Source of the DNA: a virus
Virus record (IMG/VR): IMGVR_UViG_3300042879_004946
Span: 44,458-108,457 of that record
Reading direction: 5' to 3' (one strand)
DNA length: 64,000 bases
Shown: positions 26,156 to 40,059 of the stretch, in pieces
Layout of the letters: each line of letters opens with the position of its first letter
Position numbering within the stretch: the stretch's first letter is position 1
Position numbers and translations under genes: made by a program
The notes under the pieces: generated by a model
Seen by the model: only the letters and a program-made list of their open reading frames with translations
Databases searched by the model: none
Told to the model about the DNA's origin: nothing

Positions 26156-27694
26156 ATGGGTATTTTACATACATATTTTACGAAAAATAATACAATAGTT
26201 AGGAATTCTTACGTTAACACGGGTAAAAATCCTGTTGTCGAGTTATTCCATGGTGGTTCATTAAATGCCGACCAAGTAACTTATTCTAGATATATATTTA
26301 GTTTTGATTTTACGGAAATACTCCAAAGGTTGAATGCTAAACAAACAACTTTGGATAAAATGTCACACACTTTAAAAATCACAAACACTTCAACATTTGA
26401 TGAAGAACAATTTTGTAAAAGTGTTAATTCTTGTATTGGGGATGTTAAAAGATCAACTTGTTTTGATTTAATTCTTTTTGAAATTCCTGAAGCTTGGGCA
26501 GAAGGTGATGGTTACGATTATACCGATGTTAAAATAAGTTGTTCTGATAGTGATAGAACTTATTGTGAGGGACCATCAAACTGGTTTCAAAGAAATAATC
26601 TAATAAATTGTTGGTCAATCCCTGGTATTTATAGTGACCCAACAAATTGGTGTTCTGGGAGCACTTCTGGAGCAACTTCAGGTGGTACTACATGTTCAGG
26701 TGGTACTAATTTAATTATTGCAACACAACATTTCGATTATGGTGACGAAAATGTTAATATCGATATCACTTCTTATATTAACAATTTAATTTTAAGTGGT
26801 TATACCGGTTTAACTTATGGTTTAGGATTGGCATACGCAAATGCTTTAGAAATTGCACCATTGGAAAACGCAGAATATGTTGGTTTTTTTAGTCGTCACA
26901 CAAATACTGTTTATGAACCTTTTTTAGAAACTAAATGGGATGACACCATAAAAGACGATAGAGACAACTTTTATTTAAATAAAGATAACAACATATGTCT
27001 TTATGTTAATGCGGGTGGACAAGCAACTAATGCAACTTTTTCAGGGGTAACCATTTACGATCAATTAGGTAATGTTTTTAAAGAAATACCACCTTCTGGA
27101 ATTACACAAGTAACCACGGGCGTTTATTGTGTTAATTTTGCGGTCGACGATAATCCGGCATCAGGTTATTGTGGCAATATCCAATTCACTGATGTGTGGC
27201 AAGACGTTACTATTGGTAACAAAAATTTAGGTGATGTTGAACTTAGTTTTATTGTTTTAGAGGCTGATGACTACTATCGTATAGGTTCTAGTAATAGTGC
27301 TGGTGCAAACGGTTTAGGTGTCGGTAAGGCTACCAATTTGTCTATTTATGAATATGATGTTAATATTCGTGGTATTAAATATAAAGAAAAAATTAAAAGA
27401 GGTGATACCAGAAGAATTAATGTTGATGTCAGAATTCCATACACATACGATTCTACTGTTACACTAGATAAGGTTTATTATCGTATGTATACTTTAGATA
27501 ATGGAACTACACAAATAGAATATATTGATTGGCAAGAAATAAGTAGAACACCAGATGGTAACTTTTTTATTGTTGACACTTCTTGGTTTATACCTAATGA
27601 TTATTTTATTGAGATTAAAATAGAATCAGGTAACGAGGTTAGGACTTTTCCACAAACAATCTCGTTTACAATTGTATCAGAAAAAAACGTATGA
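26156..27694 (+). CDS. Probable virion structural protein
   Basis: Beta-rich composition, SGST/SGGT-type repeats, promoter motif and context. Confidence 0.55.
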   Translation: MGILHTYFTKNNTIVRNSYVNTGKNPVVELFHGGSLNADQVTYSRYIFSFDFTEILQRLNAKQTTLDKMSHTLKITNTSTFDEEQFCKSVNSCIGDVKRSTCFDLILFEIPEAWAEGDGYDYTDVKISCSDSDRTYCEGPSNWFQRNNLINCWSIPGIYSDPTNWCSGSTSGATSGGTTCSGGTNLIIATQHFDYGDENVNIDITSYINNLILSGYTGLTYGLGLAYANALEIAPLENAEYVGFFSRHTNTVYEPFLETKWDDTIKDDRDNFYLNKDNNICLYVNAGGQATNATFSGVTIYDQLGNVFKEIPPSGITQVTTGVYCVNFAVDDNPASGYCGNIQFTDVWQDVTIGNKNLGDVELSFIVLEADDYYRIGSSNSAGANGLGVGKATNLSIYEYDVNIRGIKYKEKIKRGDTRRINVDVRIPYTYDSTVTLDKVYYRMYTLDNGTTQIEYIDWQEISRTPDGNFFIVDTSWFIPNDYFIEIKIESGNEVRTFPQTISFTIVSEKNV

Positions 27695-28068
27695 AAAACC
27701 TTATAAGAAAAATATTAAAAGAAGAATTTGATGATTTTGGTTGGGCTGAAGAATTGATTGGTAATACTAAACAATTTTCCCCCGCTGAAGAGTTCTTATA
27801 TGAAATCATGTCCAATTTAAAGGCAGTTACTTCGGAAAAAAATCCAGGTTGGATGGAGTATAAGGATGAAAGTGGGGTTATTTTAATGGCGGATAATGTG
27901 GATAGAAATGAAAAAACCCCCCATTTATGGGTTGATTATGATAAAATTTGGAGAAAATTAAATCAAAAATTTGGTCTTAACAATCAGGAAGCCAAAGACT
28001 TATGCGTGCGTATGCTGGAGATGGTTCATAAACGAAAGGTGTTGACAGCTGATGTCGGGCAGTGGTGA
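27691..28068 (+). CDS. Array-fused small protein A (paralog of 36694..37080)
   Basis: MKNLIRKILKEE leader; C-terminal LEMVHKRKVLTA is encoded by repeat 1, and the stop codon lies in the spacer. Confidence 0.85.
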   Translation: MKNLIRKILKEEFDDFGWAEELIGNTKQFSPAEEFLYEIMSNLKAVTSEKNPGWMEYKDESGVILMADNVDRNEKTPHLWVDYDKIWRKLNQKFGLNNQEAKDLCVRMLEMVHKRKVLTADVGQW

Positions 28069-28115
28069 CGCTTTTTTAGGCTGGAGATGGTTCATAAACG
28101 AAAGGTGTTGACAGA
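28014..28115 (+). CRISPR. CRISPR-like mini-array: 2 repeats of 36 nt, 1 spacer of 30 nt
   Basis: GCTGGAGATGGTTCATAAACGAAAGGTGTTGACAG(C/A) at 28014-28049 and 28080-28115; spacer 28050-28079 TGATGTCGGGCAGTGGTGACGCTTTTTTAG. Confidence 0.7.
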
Positions 28116-28138
28116 TCCAATTATTTAGAGTATAAATA

Positions 28139-28166
28139 AAAAAACCCAGATTAATCTGGGTTTTTT
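28139..28166. terminator. Bidirectional intrinsic terminator
   Basis: Palindrome AAAACCCAGATTAATCTGGGTTTT between convergent genes, just after the mini-array. Confidence 0.8.
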
Positions 28167-28185
28167 CTTTTAATATTAAAAATTT

Positions 28186-29445: not shown

Positions 29446-29709
29446 ATGGAGTTTAAAACACTAAAAGAACAATATATTGATTTGGTAACTGAAAAAGTAT
29501 CCATTAATAAAGAAGATCTTACAGAAACCGAATCCGCCATAATCGATATTGGTTACAATTTGTTGGTTGAAAAATTGGAAGATATAAAAATTCTAAAAGA
29601 TGAACTTCGTAGAATTTCCATTGATTTGGCTAACATGAAAGTTTTTAATGCAGATGTTAAAAATAAATATTGTGATGATTCCGATATCTTAGATGAAGAT
29701 TGTTTTTAA
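29446..29709 (+). CDS. Hypothetical protein
   Basis: ORF with an A-rich leader. Confidence 0.55.
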   Translation: MEFKTLKEQYIDLVTEKVSINKEDLTETESAIIDIGYNLLVEKLEDIKILKDELRRISIDLANMKVFNADVKNKYCDDSDILDEDCF

Positions 29710-30386
29710 ACAATTTGACTTAAAAACTTCCTAATGGAACGACGAATGACACCTTTCTCAATATTAGGAAAATTCTCTTGTAATTCAATAAATAATTTAT
29801 TTGTTAAATAACTTTTATTACCTTCGATGAAATAAGGTTTTTCATCTACAACAATATAGGGTTTATTATCATAGATATCTGGGATTGTTAATCTATTGAT
29901 TTCATAATTATCCTCCAAATAAGAAATAATTGGATCTTCGACCCTAAAAGGATCTCTTCTGGTAAGTTCAAAAGCCCAATCATATTCTTCAGATTCTTTT
30001 AAAAATGTTGTTTTAAAAAAAGGTTCTAAAACTTTTATAAGATGTAAATATTCGTCAGAAATTTGCATATTTGTTGCTGTTCTCGCAACGTGCTCAAGTT
30101 CACTTTTAATATTTTTAATATTGAAATCTCTTGCAAACCAAGTTTCATATGTTCCAAGATTATCACGAATATGATACATATCTTGTTCAGGGAAGTCTTC
30201 ATCTCTATCAACATCAACAATAAATTTGGATCCTATAAGTGGTTTTTTATCTTTTAAAAATTTATTTAACTCTGAATAAAGTAATTCTGCCTCACTTTTT
30301 GGGTTATCTTGGTAATATTTTATTATATGATAAACCCAATCATATTCTTCAGATTCTTTTAATATTTTACGGATTAAATTTTTCAT
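29706..30386 (-). CDS. Hypothetical protein with MKNLIRKILKE leader and duplicated LKESEEYDW
   Basis: Leader shared with the 27691 and 37080 genes; promoter motif at 30391-30399. Confidence 0.75.
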   Translation of the reverse strand: MKNLIRKILKESEEYDWVYHIIKYYQDNPKSEAELLYSELNKFLKDKKPLIGSKFIVDVDRDEDFPEQDMYHIRDNLGTYETWFARDFNIKNIKSELEHVARTATNMQISDEYLHLIKVLEPFFKTTFLKESEEYDWAFELTRRDPFRVEDPIISYLEDNYEINRLTIPDIYDNKPYIVVDEKPYFIEGNKSYLTNKLFIELQENFPNIEKGVIRRSIRKFLSQIV

Positions 30387-34118: not shown

Positions 34119-35672
34119 TTATTTTTTGTAACCGTATTCCCAAAGTTTTTTCATGTTTTGTAACTCTGGATGTACAAAAACTGTTTGTTCACTAATTTGA
34201 ACTGATCCACTAGAAGCAGTTTTATTAAGTTTTTCCTCAACAGATTCTTTAATTGTAGGTTTTGAATTAGTAAATTCTTTAACAAGTTGTTTATAGATTG
34301 ATTGAGATTCTTTTAAAGATTTTGCCTCATCTAATCTTTTTAAAATTTCTTGTTTTTCCTCTTTTGTTGTACTTTGTTCAGTAAATAATCTAACTGCGTA
34401 AGTAAGATTGCTGTTGAAAACTGCTACTTCTTGAAGTTTATTTCTGAATTGTTTTAATGCGTCAACCATTTTTTCTTGGTTAGCTTTTAATTCTTCATTT
34501 TCACTTCTAAGAGTTGAAACAGATTCACTTAGATTTGTGTTTTCGTTGATGAGTTTGGAGATTTGTGGATTTTTAGATTCACCCATATAAGTTGAATTAC
34601 CCATTCTTGCTATTGCGTTAGGGTTGGTTCTATTACCTACACGATATCTACCTTTTGTAGATTTTGTTCTACTTGCGTAATCTTCATCACTATGCCTCAT
34701 GTAAGAAGACATTTCATCTTCGTTACCTTTTTTACGAGCCGCTATAACATCACCCATAGTAACTTTATTTTTGTCCCCATACATAGAGGCAAGTTCTTGG
34801 TTTGTATTATATTTTTTACGTTTCATATACATTGGCATTGACATTTTACGTTCATTAGAATTCATATCCATATAGTCTTCATCCATATAGTCTTCATCCA
34901 TATAGTCTTCATCCATATAGTCTTCATCCATATAGTCTTCATCCATATAGTCTTCATCCATATAGTCTTCATCCATATAGTCTTCATCCATATAGTCTTC
35001 ATCAACTACAATTTCATATATAACTTGATTGGATTCACTTAAACCTTCTTCCATAGATGACATTTCAACATCACCTACTTCACCGGTTCTAGTATTAAGT
35101 TCAATTCTATACTCAGATCCTGACTTATTATCTTTCAAGGTAACCATACCATTATCGTTAACAACTTCGATTTCATCTTCTGGTCCCATTTTTTTGAAAA
35201 CAGAGATTACATCAGCGTCGGAACTATCTGTAAGGTCGACAGTATCCATTGGTTCCATCATTCCTACATCTTCGGTTTCGTCACCTAAATCAAGGTCCAT
35301 ATCCATATCTTCCATATCTTCATCTTCTTCAGATTCCATGTCTTCCATATCAAGATCCATGTCCATGTCCTCGTCATCACCTTCTTCTGCGCCCATGTCT
35401 AAATCCAAATCCATTTCTTCTTCACCTTCTTCGGTATCCAAATCCATTTCTTCTTCATTGTCATCGTCAGAATCAAGTTCTAAGTCAATTTCCTCCTCTT
35501 CATCTTCCTTCAAACCCTTTTTTGAACCTGTAAGAGATTCCTTTACCATTTCTTCAATTTCTGAACTCATAGTGTGAGCCAGTATTTCTTTTGCGTTTGA
35601 TTTGAAAGCGGCGTCGATTTTTTCTGCCTCTAGAAGAGCTTCTTCAATAATTGATTTTTTTTCGTTTGCCAT
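34119..35672 (-). CDS. Prohead core/scaffold protein (acidic, coiled-coil)
   Basis: Immediately upstream of MCP; very acidic; many (L/I)xE sites. Confidence 0.7.
   Translation of the reverse strand: MANEKKSIIEEALLEAEKIDAAFKSNAKEILAHTMSSEIEEMVKESLTGSKKGLKEDEEEEIDLELDSDDDNEEEMDLDTEEGEEEMDLDLDMGAEEGDDEDMDMDLDMEDMESEEDEDMEDMDMDLDLGDETEDVGMMEPMDTVDLTDSSDADVISVFKKMGPEDEIEVVNDNGMVTLKDNKSGSEYRIELNTRTGEVGDVEMSSMEEGLSESNQVIYEIVVDEDYMDEDYMDEDYMDEDYMDEDYMDEDYMDEDYMDEDYMDEDYMDMNSNERKMSMPMYMKRKKYNTNQELASMYGDKNKVTMGDVIAARKKGNEDEMSSYMRHSDEDYASRTKSTKGRYRVGNRTNPNAIARMGNSTYMGESKNPQISKLINENTNLSESVSTLRSENEELKANQEKMVDALKQFRNKLQEVAVFNSNLTYAVRLFTEQSTTKEEKQEILKRLDEAKSLKESQSIYKQLVKEFTNSKPTIKESVEEKLNKTASSGSVQISEQTVFVHPELQNMKKLWEYGYKK
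34866..35003 (-). repeat. Perfect 15-bp tandem repeat x9 encoding DEDYM
   Basis: ATCCATATAGTCTTC repeated nine times from 34866. Confidence 0.95.
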
Positions 35673-35817: not shown

Positions 35818-36294
35818 ATGAAAGCAATAATTAAAAAAATACTTAGAGAATACGTTGAAAATAATCTTAGAAATGATGATTTTATGCGAAAAATTGATTA
35901 TGCACAAAAAAAAGCAATAATCGATTCCGAATATCCAACAGAGACAAAAGAAATTAAAAAAATAGAAAAAGATATAAAAAATAAAGTAGAAAGGGCCTAC
36001 AAAGATGTAACGGGTGAAGAACCTGAGAGTGTGGATAACATTGTTGTTAAAGTTGATGATACAATGCCACCAGAAAAAATTGGTTCATTTAAACATCCTA
36101 AAAACAAAAAAGACATCGGATTGATGAAAATTCATCCCGATGCCTTAAATGACAAAAACTATGTTAAAGATATTTTAAAACATGAGTTGATACATGCGGC
36201 TCATGGTTTGGAAGATACCACGGCAAGAAACCATGGGGGTGTTTTTCAAAAAGTTGCAGATAAAGTTGGATTGCCCAAAAAATATCGTCACTAG
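35818..36294 (+). CDS. SprT-like zinc metallopeptidase with MKAIIKKILRE leader
   Basis: ILKHELIHAAH..HGGVFQK. Confidence 0.75.
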   Translation: MKAIIKKILREYVENNLRNDDFMRKIDYAQKKAIIDSEYPTETKEIKKIEKDIKNKVERAYKDVTGEEPESVDNIVVKVDDTMPPEKIGSFKHPKNKKDIGLMKIHPDALNDKNYVKDILKHELIHAAHGLEDTTARNHGGVFQKVADKVGLPKKYRH

Positions 36295-36297
36295 ATT

Positions 36298-36531
36298 TTA
36301 TTTCACATCAGTTACTTCAATAACATCTTCAATTGGACTTTTACTGGTACTAACAATTTCATAATCCATAACTGAATCTTTCAAGTAAGTTCTTGCACGT
36401 GCTTCAGCCTCAGTACAAGACATTGCATCTACCAAATATTGGGTTTTAATTTTTTTAGGTTTACCATTATTTTCATTAATGGTTTCGAATTCTACTTTTA
36501 CTAAGTAGTACTTTGTTGTCATTTCATTCAT
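36298..36531 (-). CDS. DUF4494-like protein
   Basis: YLVDAMSCTEAEAR resembles the Bacteroidota DUF4494 family (from recall). Confidence 0.65.
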   Translation of the reverse strand: MNEMTTKYYLVKVEFETINENNGKPKKIKTQYLVDAMSCTEAEARARTYLKDSVMDYEIVSTSKSPIEDVIEVTDVK

Positions 36532-36603
36532 AACTATATTTTTTTTATAAAATAATAATAAAAAAAATAAGTAAATATGTCAACCAATTTGATTTTTTTT
36601 TAT

Positions 36604-36769
36604 GTTGTCAACACCTTTCGTTTATGGGTCATCTCCAGCGCACAAGGCCAGGGGGCTCATCGCCCCTTGCTGTAAACACCTTTCGTTTATGGGTCATTTC
36701 CAGCGGTAAATTATGCCAGACTTATTGGTGTAAGCTGACAATACCTTTCGTTTATGGGTCATTTCCAGC
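36604..36769 (-). CRISPR. CRISPR-like mini-array: 3 repeats of 36 nt, 2 spacers of 29 nt
   Basis: Minus-strand repeats GCTGGARATGACCCATAAACGAAAGGTRTTKWCARC at 36734-36769, 36669-36704 and 36604-36639; spacers TTACACCAATAAGTCTGGCATAATTTACC and AAGGGGCGATGAGCCCCCTGGCCTTGTGC. Confidence 0.8.
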
Positions 36770-37080
36770 ATACGCATACATAAGTCTTTGATTTCTTGTT
36801 CATTAAGACCAAATTCTTGACGTAATTTTAACCAAATTTGACGATAATCAACTAATAAATAAGGTTTTTTTTTATCTCTATCCACACTATCCGCCATTAA
36901 AGTAACCCCACTTTTATCCTTATATAACATCAAACCTGGATAATTTTTTGAAGGAACCACCTTTAAGTTTGACATGATTTCATACAAAAATTCTTCAGCG
37001 GGGGAAAATTCTTTAATTTCCCCCACCCAATCAAAATCATCAAATTCTTCTCTCAATATTTTTCTTATAAGATTTTTCAT
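36694..37080 (-). CDS. Array-fused small protein B (paralog of 27691..28068)
   Basis: Shares FSPAEEFLYEIMSNLK, YKD.SGV.LMAD and VDY..IW.KL; reads through repeat 1 and spacer 1 and stops in repeat 2. Confidence 0.85.
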   Translation of the reverse strand: MKNLIRKILREEFDDFDWVGEIKEFSPAEEFLYEIMSNLKVVPSKNYPGLMLYKDKSGVTLMADSVDRDKKKPYLLVDYRQIWLKLRQEFGLNEQEIKDLCMRMLEMTHKRKVLSAYTNKSGIIYRWK

Positions 37081-38919: not shown

Positions 38920-40059
38920 TTATTCTATAGTTATGCTAACTTTATCAAAAACAGTTTCTATCATTAAGTTAGAAACTTTATAAGGATCACAATTAGCGGC
39001 TGGTCTTCTATCTTCAAAATAACCTTTTTCGTTTGTGTATGTGTGAACTGGAATACGAATGCTTGAACTTCTGTCGGAATTTCCAAAACTAAAAGAGTCC
39101 ATACTAGAGGTTTCGTGTTTGCCAGTTAAACGTTTATCATTAAATTCGCCATAACCTTCAATATGCTCTAAATGTCTTTCTTTTAACTTTTTACAGGCTT
39201 CTAAAATCTTTTTAAGACCACCTTTTTCTCGCATTTCTTTGGTGGAAAAATTAACATGACAACCGCTGCCATTCCAATCACCGTTAACTGGTTTTGGGTG
39301 ATAAGAAATTCCATAACCCCTTTTTTCTGCAACTCTTTCTAAAATATAACGAGAAACCCAGAGTTGATCAGAACCATTAAGTGCAGTCACTGGGCCTATT
39401 TGATATTCCCATTGGCCAATGAGAACTTCAGCATTAATACCACCAATACTTAAACCGATTTCTGCACATTTTTGAAGGTGTTCCTCAACTATCTCGCGAC
39501 CAACAACATTAAGGCCACCAACACCACAATAATAATCACCTTGTGGTCTTGGGTTGCCGTCTTGTGTTGTTTGAAAACCAAGCGGGATACCACCGCCGTA
39601 TTTAAATTTATTTAAAGGATTTACTGCATGTGTGATAACATACTCTTGTTCCCATCCAAACCAAGGAACTTCAGAATGGTTTGCATCAAATTCTTTAAAT
39701 TTAAGATCTGACAATAATTCACGTAATTTAAACCTGGTATTTGTTTTGTGCGGTGTAACACCATCTGGGTTAAATACCTCACAAAAAACTAATTTGTGTT
39801 TTTTACCCCTAAAAGGGTCTTCAACAACATAAACAGGTTTTAAAACGCAGTCAGTACCTTGGAATTCATATTCTTTGGTAGCTGCCTGTTTAGTAGAACT
39901 GCCGTCAAAACTCCAAAGTGGGTACGACTCTGGATAACCTTGTTTTGGATTACCTTTTGACTCCAACGTCTCAATGTCTTCGACAACTTTTGTTTTACTT
40001 CTTAAATTTTGTGGGTTATTCCCATCCAACCAAATGTACTCTAAAAAAACTTTACTCAT
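38920..40059 (-). CDS. glnII: Glutamine synthetase, type II
   Basis: EYIWLDG, WSFDGSST, QGDYYCGVG, GINAEV..GQWEYQ, WNGSGCH, RLTGKHET, EDRRPAANCDPY. Confidence 0.93.
   Translation of the reverse strand: MSKVFLEYIWLDGNNPQNLRSKTKVVEDIETLESKGNPKQGYPESYPLWSFDGSSTKQAATKEYEFQGTDCVLKPVYVVEDPFRGKKHKLVFCEVFNPDGVTPHKTNTRFKLRELLSDLKFKEFDANHSEVPWFGWEQEYVITHAVNPLNKFKYGGGIPLGFQTTQDGNPRPQGDYYCGVGGLNVVGREIVEEHLQKCAEIGLSIGGINAEVLIGQWEYQIGPVTALNGSDQLWVSRYILERVAEKRGYGISYHPKPVNGDWNGSGCHVNFSTKEMREKGGLKKILEACKKLKERHLEHIEGYGEFNDKRLTGKHETSSMDSFSFGNSDRSSSIRIPVHTYTNEKGYFEDRRPAANCDPYKVSNLMIETVFDKVSITIE

Follow-up and report, generated by a model that had tools for sequence, protein, structure and literature searches.

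We report that the coding region of a 128-aa phage gene ends in a genuine CRISPR-type mini-array: the last 12 family-conserved codons of the gene are, in frame, the first of three 36-nt repeats that alternate with two unrelated spacers. The gene-plus-array design is family-wide, and this recurrence is the strongest result of the analysis. We consider it rather probable that the repeat is a selected mimic of a CRISPR repeat, carried within coding sequence, which would be filled in trans by the Cas1-Cas2 of the host and would act mainly as a decoy.

Results

Genome setting and anatomy of the loci

The window, which is the whole stretch of 64,000 nucleotides that was analysed, comes from an IMG/VR virus record of 108,457 bp (30.7% G+C) that is estimated to be one-third complete. 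The gene of interest (locus B) lies in a head-assembly block, with a T4-type prohead protease directly upstream, and a related phage measures 318 kb at 96% completeness; the protease and the size of this relative point to a giant T4-like phage. An unrelated 161-aa ORF occupies the slot of the locus B gene in the 318-kb relative, which marks the gene-array module as an insertion specific to a lineage. GenBank phages contained no DNA relative of the locus B region.

An earlier, sequence-only reading of this DNA had described the three 36-nt repeats and the two unrelated 29-nt spacers of locus B, and this anatomy was borne out (Table 1), every factual detail being correct. The period is 65 nt, and the two spacers bear no relation to each other. 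The ORF likewise confirms that repeat 1 is in frame within the 128-aa reading frame, that spacer 1 encodes an unconserved tail of nine residues, and that the stop codon of the gene falls inside repeat 2. When repeat 3 is read in the same manner, a stop lies just beyond the repeat, resembling the end of an ancestral gene. The count of 20 G+C among the 29 nt of spacer 2, against a genome of 30.7%, was also confirmed. A search with a 20-nt repeat core gave five copies in the window and none in 100 shuffles. No terminator was found between the locus B array and the promoter match that follows it. The paralogous gene (locus A), which had been claimed to carry the same fusion with a different spacer, does so on the opposite strand, with one 30-nt spacer.

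Table 1. Features of the two gene-array loci, given as positions in the window.
Feature	Position	Strand	Remarks
128-aa gene, locus B	36694-37080	(-)	From the ORF list; member of the phage family; no Pfam match
Repeat 1, 36 nt	36734-36769	(-)	Within the coding region, gene-proximal; occupies the position of a leader-proximal repeat
Spacer 1, 29 nt	36705-36733	(-)	34% G+C
Repeat 2, 36 nt	36669-36704	(-)	Holds the stop codon of the gene
Spacer 2, 29 nt	36640-36668	(-)	69% G+C (20/29); internally self-complementary
Repeat 3, 36 nt	36604-36639	(-)	Terminal, gene-distal
Putative sigma-70-like promoter	36555-36583	(-)	Strong match (11/12); just downstream of the array, facing the DUF4494 gene
DUF4494 gene	36298-36531		Next gene after the locus B array
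Locus A, paralogous gene and array	27691-28115	(+)	Gene at 27691-28068
Locus A repeat 1	28014-28049	(+)	
Locus A spacer, 30 nt	28050-28079	(+)	Single spacer
Locus A terminal repeat	28080-28115	(+)	
Locus A intrinsic terminator-like hairpin	~28138-28168		After the array

Recurrence across phages and across the protein family

Five gene-array loci are present in the 108-kb record, each of them a paralogue of a ~125-aa gene that ends in the repeat, and each carries one to three spacers. A two-repeat scan of IMG/VR returned 15 stretches on ~10 contigs; together with a protein-guided scan, it yielded ~24 arrays on ~10 related contigs, with 35+ unique spacers. The repeats are 36 nt long and the spacers 28-32 nt, 25 of 35 unique spacers being exactly 30 nt. 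All arrays are fused in the same register to genes of the family, including homologues that are only 42% identical, and where the domain of the family forms the C-terminus of two larger proteins, arrays are likewise fused to it. No gene other than the family gene itself is found next to every array. Two homologues carry one repeat without any spacer, and in one of them the repeat runs straight into the stop codon. The proposal of a repeated module of protein and array, with a sequence that serves at once as codons and as repeat, is thus supported by its recurrence in homologues; a search with the repeat and the protein across this genome and related contigs found that the homologues consistently carry different spacers of constrained length. 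The opposite pattern, namely homologues that generally lack arrays and inter-repeat segments without length constraint, was not seen: the spacers are unrelated and stay within the 28-32 nt range.

The design extends well beyond these contigs. A profile search of 1.84 billion representatives identified 111 family members, and 23 of the 111 called proteins contain an in-frame second copy of their own C-terminal motif. The offset between the two copies is exactly 22 aa (66 nt) in 21 of the 111 representatives, which between them have at least 12 different motifs. Since reading through into a second copy requires a stop-free 30-nt spacer, the true share of the family with arrays must exceed 21-23 of 111. 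At the DNA level, genes with their arrays stand in tandem in a distant second subfamily; its 36-nt repeat is a different one, with spacers of 30-31 nt, and starts and ends at the homologous codon positions. Two single-protein IMG/VR scans for further subfamilies returned no relatives. Within a subfamily, no part of the gene is better conserved than the repeat segment, and between subfamilies no part differs more, which is the pattern expected from co-evolution with different partners. Such wide divergence between subfamilies would also require either many co-evolving host systems or an integrase that is loosely demanding.

Polarity and turnover of the arrays

Three independent comparisons each revealed a related phage with one additional gene-side spacer, the distal spacer being common to both phages. 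The position of these extra spacers indicates that growth is polarised, with the gene acting as leader, and spacer 1 of locus B is probably the newest of its array. The terminal, gene-distal repeats are degenerate and diverge at their 3' ends. At several loci the terminal repeat encodes the C-terminus of the family and is followed by a stop and by the start region of the next gene, so that the sequence of the far repeat resembles what was once the end of the gene. Turnover is illustrated by an orthologue of locus A, whose flanks are 97.5-98.8% identical to those in the window and which holds three spacers, none of them in common with the single spacer here. The loci thus have the fixed-length repeats and the near-constant, unique spacers of a generic CRISPR array, as well as its polarised spacer gain and degenerate far repeat. 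In the place of the non-coding A+T-rich leader of such an array stands a coding gene, and of the cas genes that would be expected nearby, no Cas1, Cas2 or large effector was found in the phage records, nor was TnpB.

Selection on the nucleotides of the repeat

Among the five codons of the repeat core are some that this genome rarely uses, accounting for 3.8% of its Arg, 9.7% of its Lys and 16% of its Thr codons, and the five would be expected together with a probability of 3.7e-4. Nevertheless, 15-16 of the 16 family genes have them unchanged, including genes that are only 42% identical. One homologue in which the core has drifted has no array, an absence that fits a dependence on sequence and indicates that loss is possible yet uncommon. 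Across 28 distinct repeats, the pairing of a hairpin with paired ends is retained in 88.6% of cells, as compared with 24-50% in slid controls. Some of its pairs are compensatory, and many G-U pairs can form only in RNA of the gene sense; since one of the compared sequences served to derive the structure, the support that it provides is modest. From the comparison of codons and pairs, the repeat appears to be kept by selection on DNA or RNA, and not only on protein.

Origin of the spacers

The mean G+C content of the spacers is 41.8%, against 30.7% for the phage (p = 8e-10). The spacer of locus A matches exactly, over 30/30 nt, a gene found in four freshwater Bacteroidota MAGs, which encodes a beta-propeller-repeat protein with a type IX secretion sorting domain. 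This gene is flanked by PEPCK and galactose genes, and nothing other than the gene itself is common to the contigs; the housekeeping flanks and the sharing of the gene alone argue for a chromosomal gene rather than a mis-binned phage. If transcribed with the phage gene, the locus A spacer would have the sense of the host mRNA, and in this orientation it could not guide an RNA-targeting effector.

A source was found for one of ~37 spacers, the searches of large collections having covered a minority of them. Neither spacer of locus B found a source in exact scans of IMG/VR, in GenBank phages or in 31 Bacteroidota genomes (the four protospacer MAGs and 27 genomes of the genus of one of them), and the core of spacer 2 had no match in JGI metagenome contigs. 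BLAST of four array regions (10 spacers, eight of them beyond locus B) against the 27 genus genomes gave no source, the locus A match being recovered as a positive control. The arrays compared with GenBank phages (nine spacers) gave only chance A+T-rich matches, and no spacer matches the analysed phage sequences of related loci. The search of host, phage and metagenome data that had been suggested earlier was fruitful for locus A, with its exact Bacteroidota match, and left the two spacers of locus B without a source. In a separate comparison, three weak repeat-like matches in candidate host MAGs were set aside as chance, each being single and non-arrayed.

The family protein

The alignment of the family comprises 16 members that are 42-85% identical. 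Residues 1-11 of the 128-aa protein form a leader that is common to unrelated phage proteins. The AlphaFold2 model is an alpha/beta fold (pLDDT 80.5, pTM 0.71), for which Foldseek found no match in the PDB at E <= 0.001 and a wide VIA-align search gave a best Z of 4.2. Pfam contains no family for the small protein, and its only match in the ESM Atlas is a viral cluster without a name. A reading of the C-terminus as a HEPN motif was rejected, the arginine not being conserved in divergent homologues. The tails encoded beyond the conserved region vary from 3 to 37 residues and are unconserved, some of them continuing into the repeat that follows; roughly half end within five codons, and they have no compositional theme.

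Cellular relatives of the repeat

The phage repeat is identical at 21-22 of 36 positions to the repeat of a Flavobacterium columnare array without cas1 (repeat taken from PMC5395568), and at 11-12 of 36 to the II-C repeat of the same species. The nearest cellular repeat found belongs to a 36-nt array of a Flavobacteriales MAG (G020), with 24/36 identical positions (67%). In G020, Cas9-Cas1-Cas2 lie on a contig other than that of the array, and the array adjoins a 165-aa ORF fragment with an R-N-x3-H motif, which had no homologue in PADLOC, NCBIfam, PDB sequences or a search of 5.8 billion proteins. A two-repeat core scan of one genome each of 185,579 species detected no cellular array with the phage core, nor did a five-repeat scan of JGI metagenome contigs detect a long array with this core; Rfam, at a permissive threshold, gave no match to a CRISPR repeat family. 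The resemblance to type VI-B that had been pointed out earlier holds for the geometry, since the 36-nt repeat with complementary ends and the ~30-nt spacers are all present, but this geometry is not diagnostic of the type: in a sample of 401 Flavobacteriales genomes, arrays of 36-nt repeats that have the end motifs of the phage repeat and 30-nt spacers are likewise found beside Cas9 and beside a Cas12f-like gene. As far as the repeats can be compared, the term VI-B-like should be taken to denote resemblance and not membership.

Enzymes of the phages and of candidate hosts

None of five phage records (the 108-kb record, the 318-kb relative and three other relatives) encodes Cas1, Cas2 or TnpB, and the earlier observation that no cas gene is present holds for these three families, which were scanned on the whole 108-kb record. 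In the 318-kb relative, 0 of 18 ORFs of at least 738 aa match the Cas effector models used. For Cas13, the two NCBIfam models considered in the analysis represent Cas13a and Cas13d. One of the protospacer MAGs encodes Cas9, Cas1 and Cas2 together with an array of 47-nt repeats and 30-nt spacers. In F. columnare, the II-C Cas1-Cas2 fills in trans a VI-B array with 36-nt repeats that has no adaptation genes, and the II-C and VI-B repeats have only one end motif in common (PMC8092290). An exact duplication of 36 nt around a foreign insert of ~30 nt is the signature of Cas1-Cas2, from which we infer that the spacers are written by a host Cas1-Cas2 acting in trans.

Discussion

Proposed mechanism

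We propose that the last 36 nt of the conserved coding region work as a CRISPR-type repeat, with the body of the gene as leader. During infection, the Cas1-Cas2 integrase of the host would act in trans on this gene-end repeat, the most likely source of the enzyme being the type II-C adaptation module of a Bacteroidota host. It would insert a fragment of ~30 nt at the gene-proximal repeat and duplicate the repeat, and the short arrays formed in this manner would be inherited by the phage. Fixation in a lytic phage lineage would demand integration into replicating phage DNA, a requirement that we count against the proposal. The arrays would be transcribed as the 3' part of the gene mRNA, and the repeat-bearing RNA could be bound by a single-protein effector of the host, of a VI-B-like kind. 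Such an RNA would be mainly a decoy that competes with the guide RNAs of the host, in other words an RNA anti-CRISPR whose dose would grow with each added repeat, and some units of the array may serve as guides. The phage, it seems, lets the CRISPR machinery of its host write into its own genes; the processing of the RNA and the benefit to the phage are presumptive parts of the scheme. With regard to the role, a decoy for a host effector would be our first choice and the supply of guides our second. A guide or decoy RNA for a host effector was one of three options in the sequence-only reading, and it is the one that we favour. A more far-reaching version may also be considered, in which C-terminal codons have turned into a host-matched repeat, the host builds arrays in phage mRNAs, and this self-amplifying source of decoys or guides co-evolves with host CRISPR systems that differ from one subfamily to the next, the small protein with its novel fold being perhaps a partner; we regard it as possible but doubtful.

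Alternative explanations

The arrays might be a by-product without benefit, the gene end merely resembling a host repeat, so that Cas1-Cas2 integrates there ectopically and the altered tail is tolerated. Such an account would agree with spacers that form no pattern of useful targets, the sole identified one being a host gene in the non-targeting sense, with tails that are random and unconserved, and with a multi-copy family in which damage to one copy is cheap. However, a few synonymous changes would suffice to abolish the site, yet the rare codons do not vary even between homologues that are 42% identical, the spacing of 66 nt has been retained while the family diverged deeply and its repeat took on many variants, and the homologue with a drifted core and no array shows that loss, although possible, is uncommon. 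On balance we hold a by-product to be unlikely. It could also be proposed that the arrays supply working guides which direct a host effector to rival phages, to defence genes of the host or to its chromosome. Virus-borne mini-arrays with such a role are known (PMC11656645), turnover is fast enough for spacers to differ between near-identical phages, and one spacer matches a host surface-protein gene exactly; but no spacer matches were found in IMG/VR viruses (two spacers, exact scan) or in GenBank phages (nine), the host-matching spacer has the sense orientation for RNA targeting, and no host array with the phage repeat was found. A hijacking of the effector by guides is accordingly judged quite improbable.

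The selected mimic filled by the host must also be weighed against readings that dispense with host enzymes or with a repeat function. A phage enzyme, possibly together with the family protein, could capture 30-nt fragments and duplicate the gene end without host Cas proteins. The family gene is the only constant array neighbour, the design holds across very different repeat sequences, and the confidently predicted fold has no known relative, as an autonomous system would have it. A protein of 115 aa without an invariant catalytic set across subfamilies is nevertheless an unlikely integrase, Bacteroidota arrays have the same 36 + 30 geometry and end motifs, and no Cas1-like or transposase-like gene was found; we see very little likelihood in it. 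The related suggestion of a new compact RNA-guided system, made in the sequence-only reading, found no support either, there being no candidate for a phage integrase or effector and no recognisable fold in the protein. The same reading had offered the diversification of the C-terminal tail, by spacer capture or recombination between repeats, as a selected function. Every first spacer does alter the tail, but the tails are random peptides that are neither conserved nor of any compositional theme, about half being cut short within five codons, and selection acts on synonymous sites of the repeat and not on the tail, which makes this function highly unlikely. Finally, the terminal repeat resembles the old gene end, as it would after ordinary partial duplications of the 3' end of the gene; against these stand a duplicated unit that is always exactly 36 nt, unrelated inserts of 28-32 nt with foreign composition, one of them an exact fragment of a host gene, and the recurrence of the pattern at dozens of loci, and the probability that we would give to them is negligible. 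A diversity-generating retroelement, which has a reverse transcriptase and a template whose variable repeat differs from it at adenines, was considered separately and does not fit the repeat copies: these are 36 nt long, their differences are scattered and not adenine-specific, and unrelated inserts lie between them.

Significance

The loci indicate that viral protein-coding genes can hide CRISPR repeats, which standard surveys that mask ORFs would miss, and that the adaptation enzymes of hosts may make repeated, heritable additions to phage genomes. If the favoured reading is true, it would supply a missing example of repeat mimicry against the 36-nt Bacteroidota systems, whether VI-B-like or II-C-linked. 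The repeat would also be a natural case in which the constraints on codons and on an RNA element overlap. In addition, a testable link is provided between a giant-phage gene family without an assigned function and anti-CRISPR biology, and the spacers may be read as a record of the cells in which uncultured phages have been.

Comparison with known systems

Virus-borne CRISPR mini-arrays were reportedly described by Faure et al. 2019 and Medvedeva et al. 2019. Viral mini-arrays and solitary repeats are similar to the present loci in being short repeat-spacer units that have no cas genes and presumably use the Cas proteins of the host. Here, in contrast, the first repeat lies in a coding region and is conserved as codons, and the design characterises an entire protein family, with numerous variants of the repeat and five or more copies per genome; there is no identical known host repeat, and no spacer matches related viruses among those searched. 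Huge phages, too, are said to carry CRISPR arrays, some of them without adaptation genes (Al-Shayeb et al. 2020). These are likewise giant uncultured phages bearing arrays, but their arrays are intergenic and usually lie beside a phage effector, whereas ours are fused to genes and no effector was found. Ectopic spacer integration by Cas1-Cas2 is reported to have produced 'neo-CRISPR' loci in E. coli (Nivala et al. 2018). Integration at a non-canonical site also duplicates the target there and makes a new repeat-spacer-repeat unit; such events are rare, unselected and located in the host chromosome, whereas the phage arrays are conserved, multi-copy and constrained at the nucleotide level. Passages of PMC7054753 and PMC6698737 cite this work on ectopic integration.

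In the known viral mini-arrays and RNA anti-CRISPRs, the repeats are identical or at least 90% identical to those of the host (PMC11656645, PMC10651486), and the decoy role of a repeat mimic has been shown experimentally for type I-F (PMC10651486). An RNA anti-CRISPR is a non-coding solitary repeat, at least 90% identical to that of the host and with a promoter of its own, whereas the phage repeat is coding, mostly arrayed and at most 67% identical; by analogy, it may nevertheless work in a similar way. The published search tool for solitary repeats masks ORFs and reported no type VI units (PMC10651486), and this masking may explain why the design has gone unnoticed.

The VI-B arrays of Flavobacteriia that are filled by II-C systems (Hoikkala et al. 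2021, PMC8092290) have in common with the phage arrays the 36-nt repeat, the ~30-nt spacers and the end motifs. They also have no cas1/cas2 of their own, grow in a polarised manner at the leader side and contain many spacers that are self-derived or in non-targeting sense. The phage arrays differ from them in that they do not lie beside cas13b, in that their leader is a coding gene and in that only 21-22 of 36 positions of the repeat are identical; no Cas13b was identified in the candidate hosts by searches that included no Cas13b model. What is new in comparison with known mini-arrays is that a repeat without an identical host counterpart is present in several copies per genome, overlaps with coding sequence and co-varies with its gene across the whole family.

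Leader, promoter and gene neighbourhood

The array-bearing family, whose C-terminal codons are the first 36-nt repeat, has an 11-residue N-terminal leader ending in a Leu/Ile-x-Glu motif, which is common to the family and three otherwise unrelated phage proteins (Table). Given that a T4-type prohead protease is encoded nearby, the leader sequence may represent a capsid-targeting propeptide, in which case its carriers would be injected head proteins. A near-consensus match (11/12) to a sigma-70-type promoter lies between the array of locus B and the DUF4494 gene. Such a promoter is unusual, being out of keeping with the A+T-rich motif that other gene starts of the phage have in common.

An extremely acidic 517-aa protein, with nine five-residue repeats in a run, is probably the head-module scaffold; the long ORFs overlapping its gene on the complementary strand and in different reading frames are likely artefacts of this five-residue repeat. 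The phage also encodes a 379-aa glutamine synthetase-like protein with both Pfam domains present, an auxiliary metabolic gene that adjoins the head module.

Coordinates of the leader carriers and associated features
Feature	Location	Strand
Leader carrier, family gene, locus B	window 36694-37080	(-)
Leader carrier, family gene, locus A	window 27691-28068	(+)
Leader carrier, 226-aa protein	window 29706-30386	(-)
Leader carrier, SprT-like 158-aa protein	window 35818-36294	(+)
Leader carrier, 114-aa protein	record 36537-36881 (outside window)	(+)
Sigma-70-type promoter match	window 36555-36583	(-)
Acidic 517-aa protein	window 34119-35672	(-)
Glutamine synthetase-like protein	window 38920-40059	(-)
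Distant family genes, viral contigs	L106:2500-3450; L107:1900-3350	
Source gene, locus A spacer	L026:2742-4469	
G020 ORF fragment	L066:3-500	
G020 array	L066:479-975	
15-repeat array	L067:14360-15315	
Cas12f/Cas12-U3-like protein	L067:15544-17340	

Relatives of the genes, spacer and repeat

On two further viral contigs, distant family genes occur in tandem runs, each ending in an array whose 36-nt repeat is a different one; its spacers measure 30-31 nt and its terminal repeat is truncated. The host gene from which the locus A spacer derives belongs to a secreted beta-propeller protein family, with paralogues in L024, L025 and L027; it is 84-94% identical between MAGs set apart by the genus search, one of which has two tandem paralogues.

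The closest 36-nt repeat to that of the phage (24/36 identical) lies in an array on contig 7 of the Flavobacteriales MAG G020. This array is preceded by an ORF fragment (the C-terminal 165 aa) with an R-N-x3-H motif, which had no match in PADLOC, NCBIfam, PDB sequences or a large protein collection, and which may represent an HEPN effector that is new or has diverged. In a Flavobacteriales genome, an array of fifteen 36-nt repeats sits immediately upstream of a gene for a Cas12f/Cas12-U3-like protein of 598 aa, showing that CRISPR types in the Flavobacteriales have this repeat class in common.
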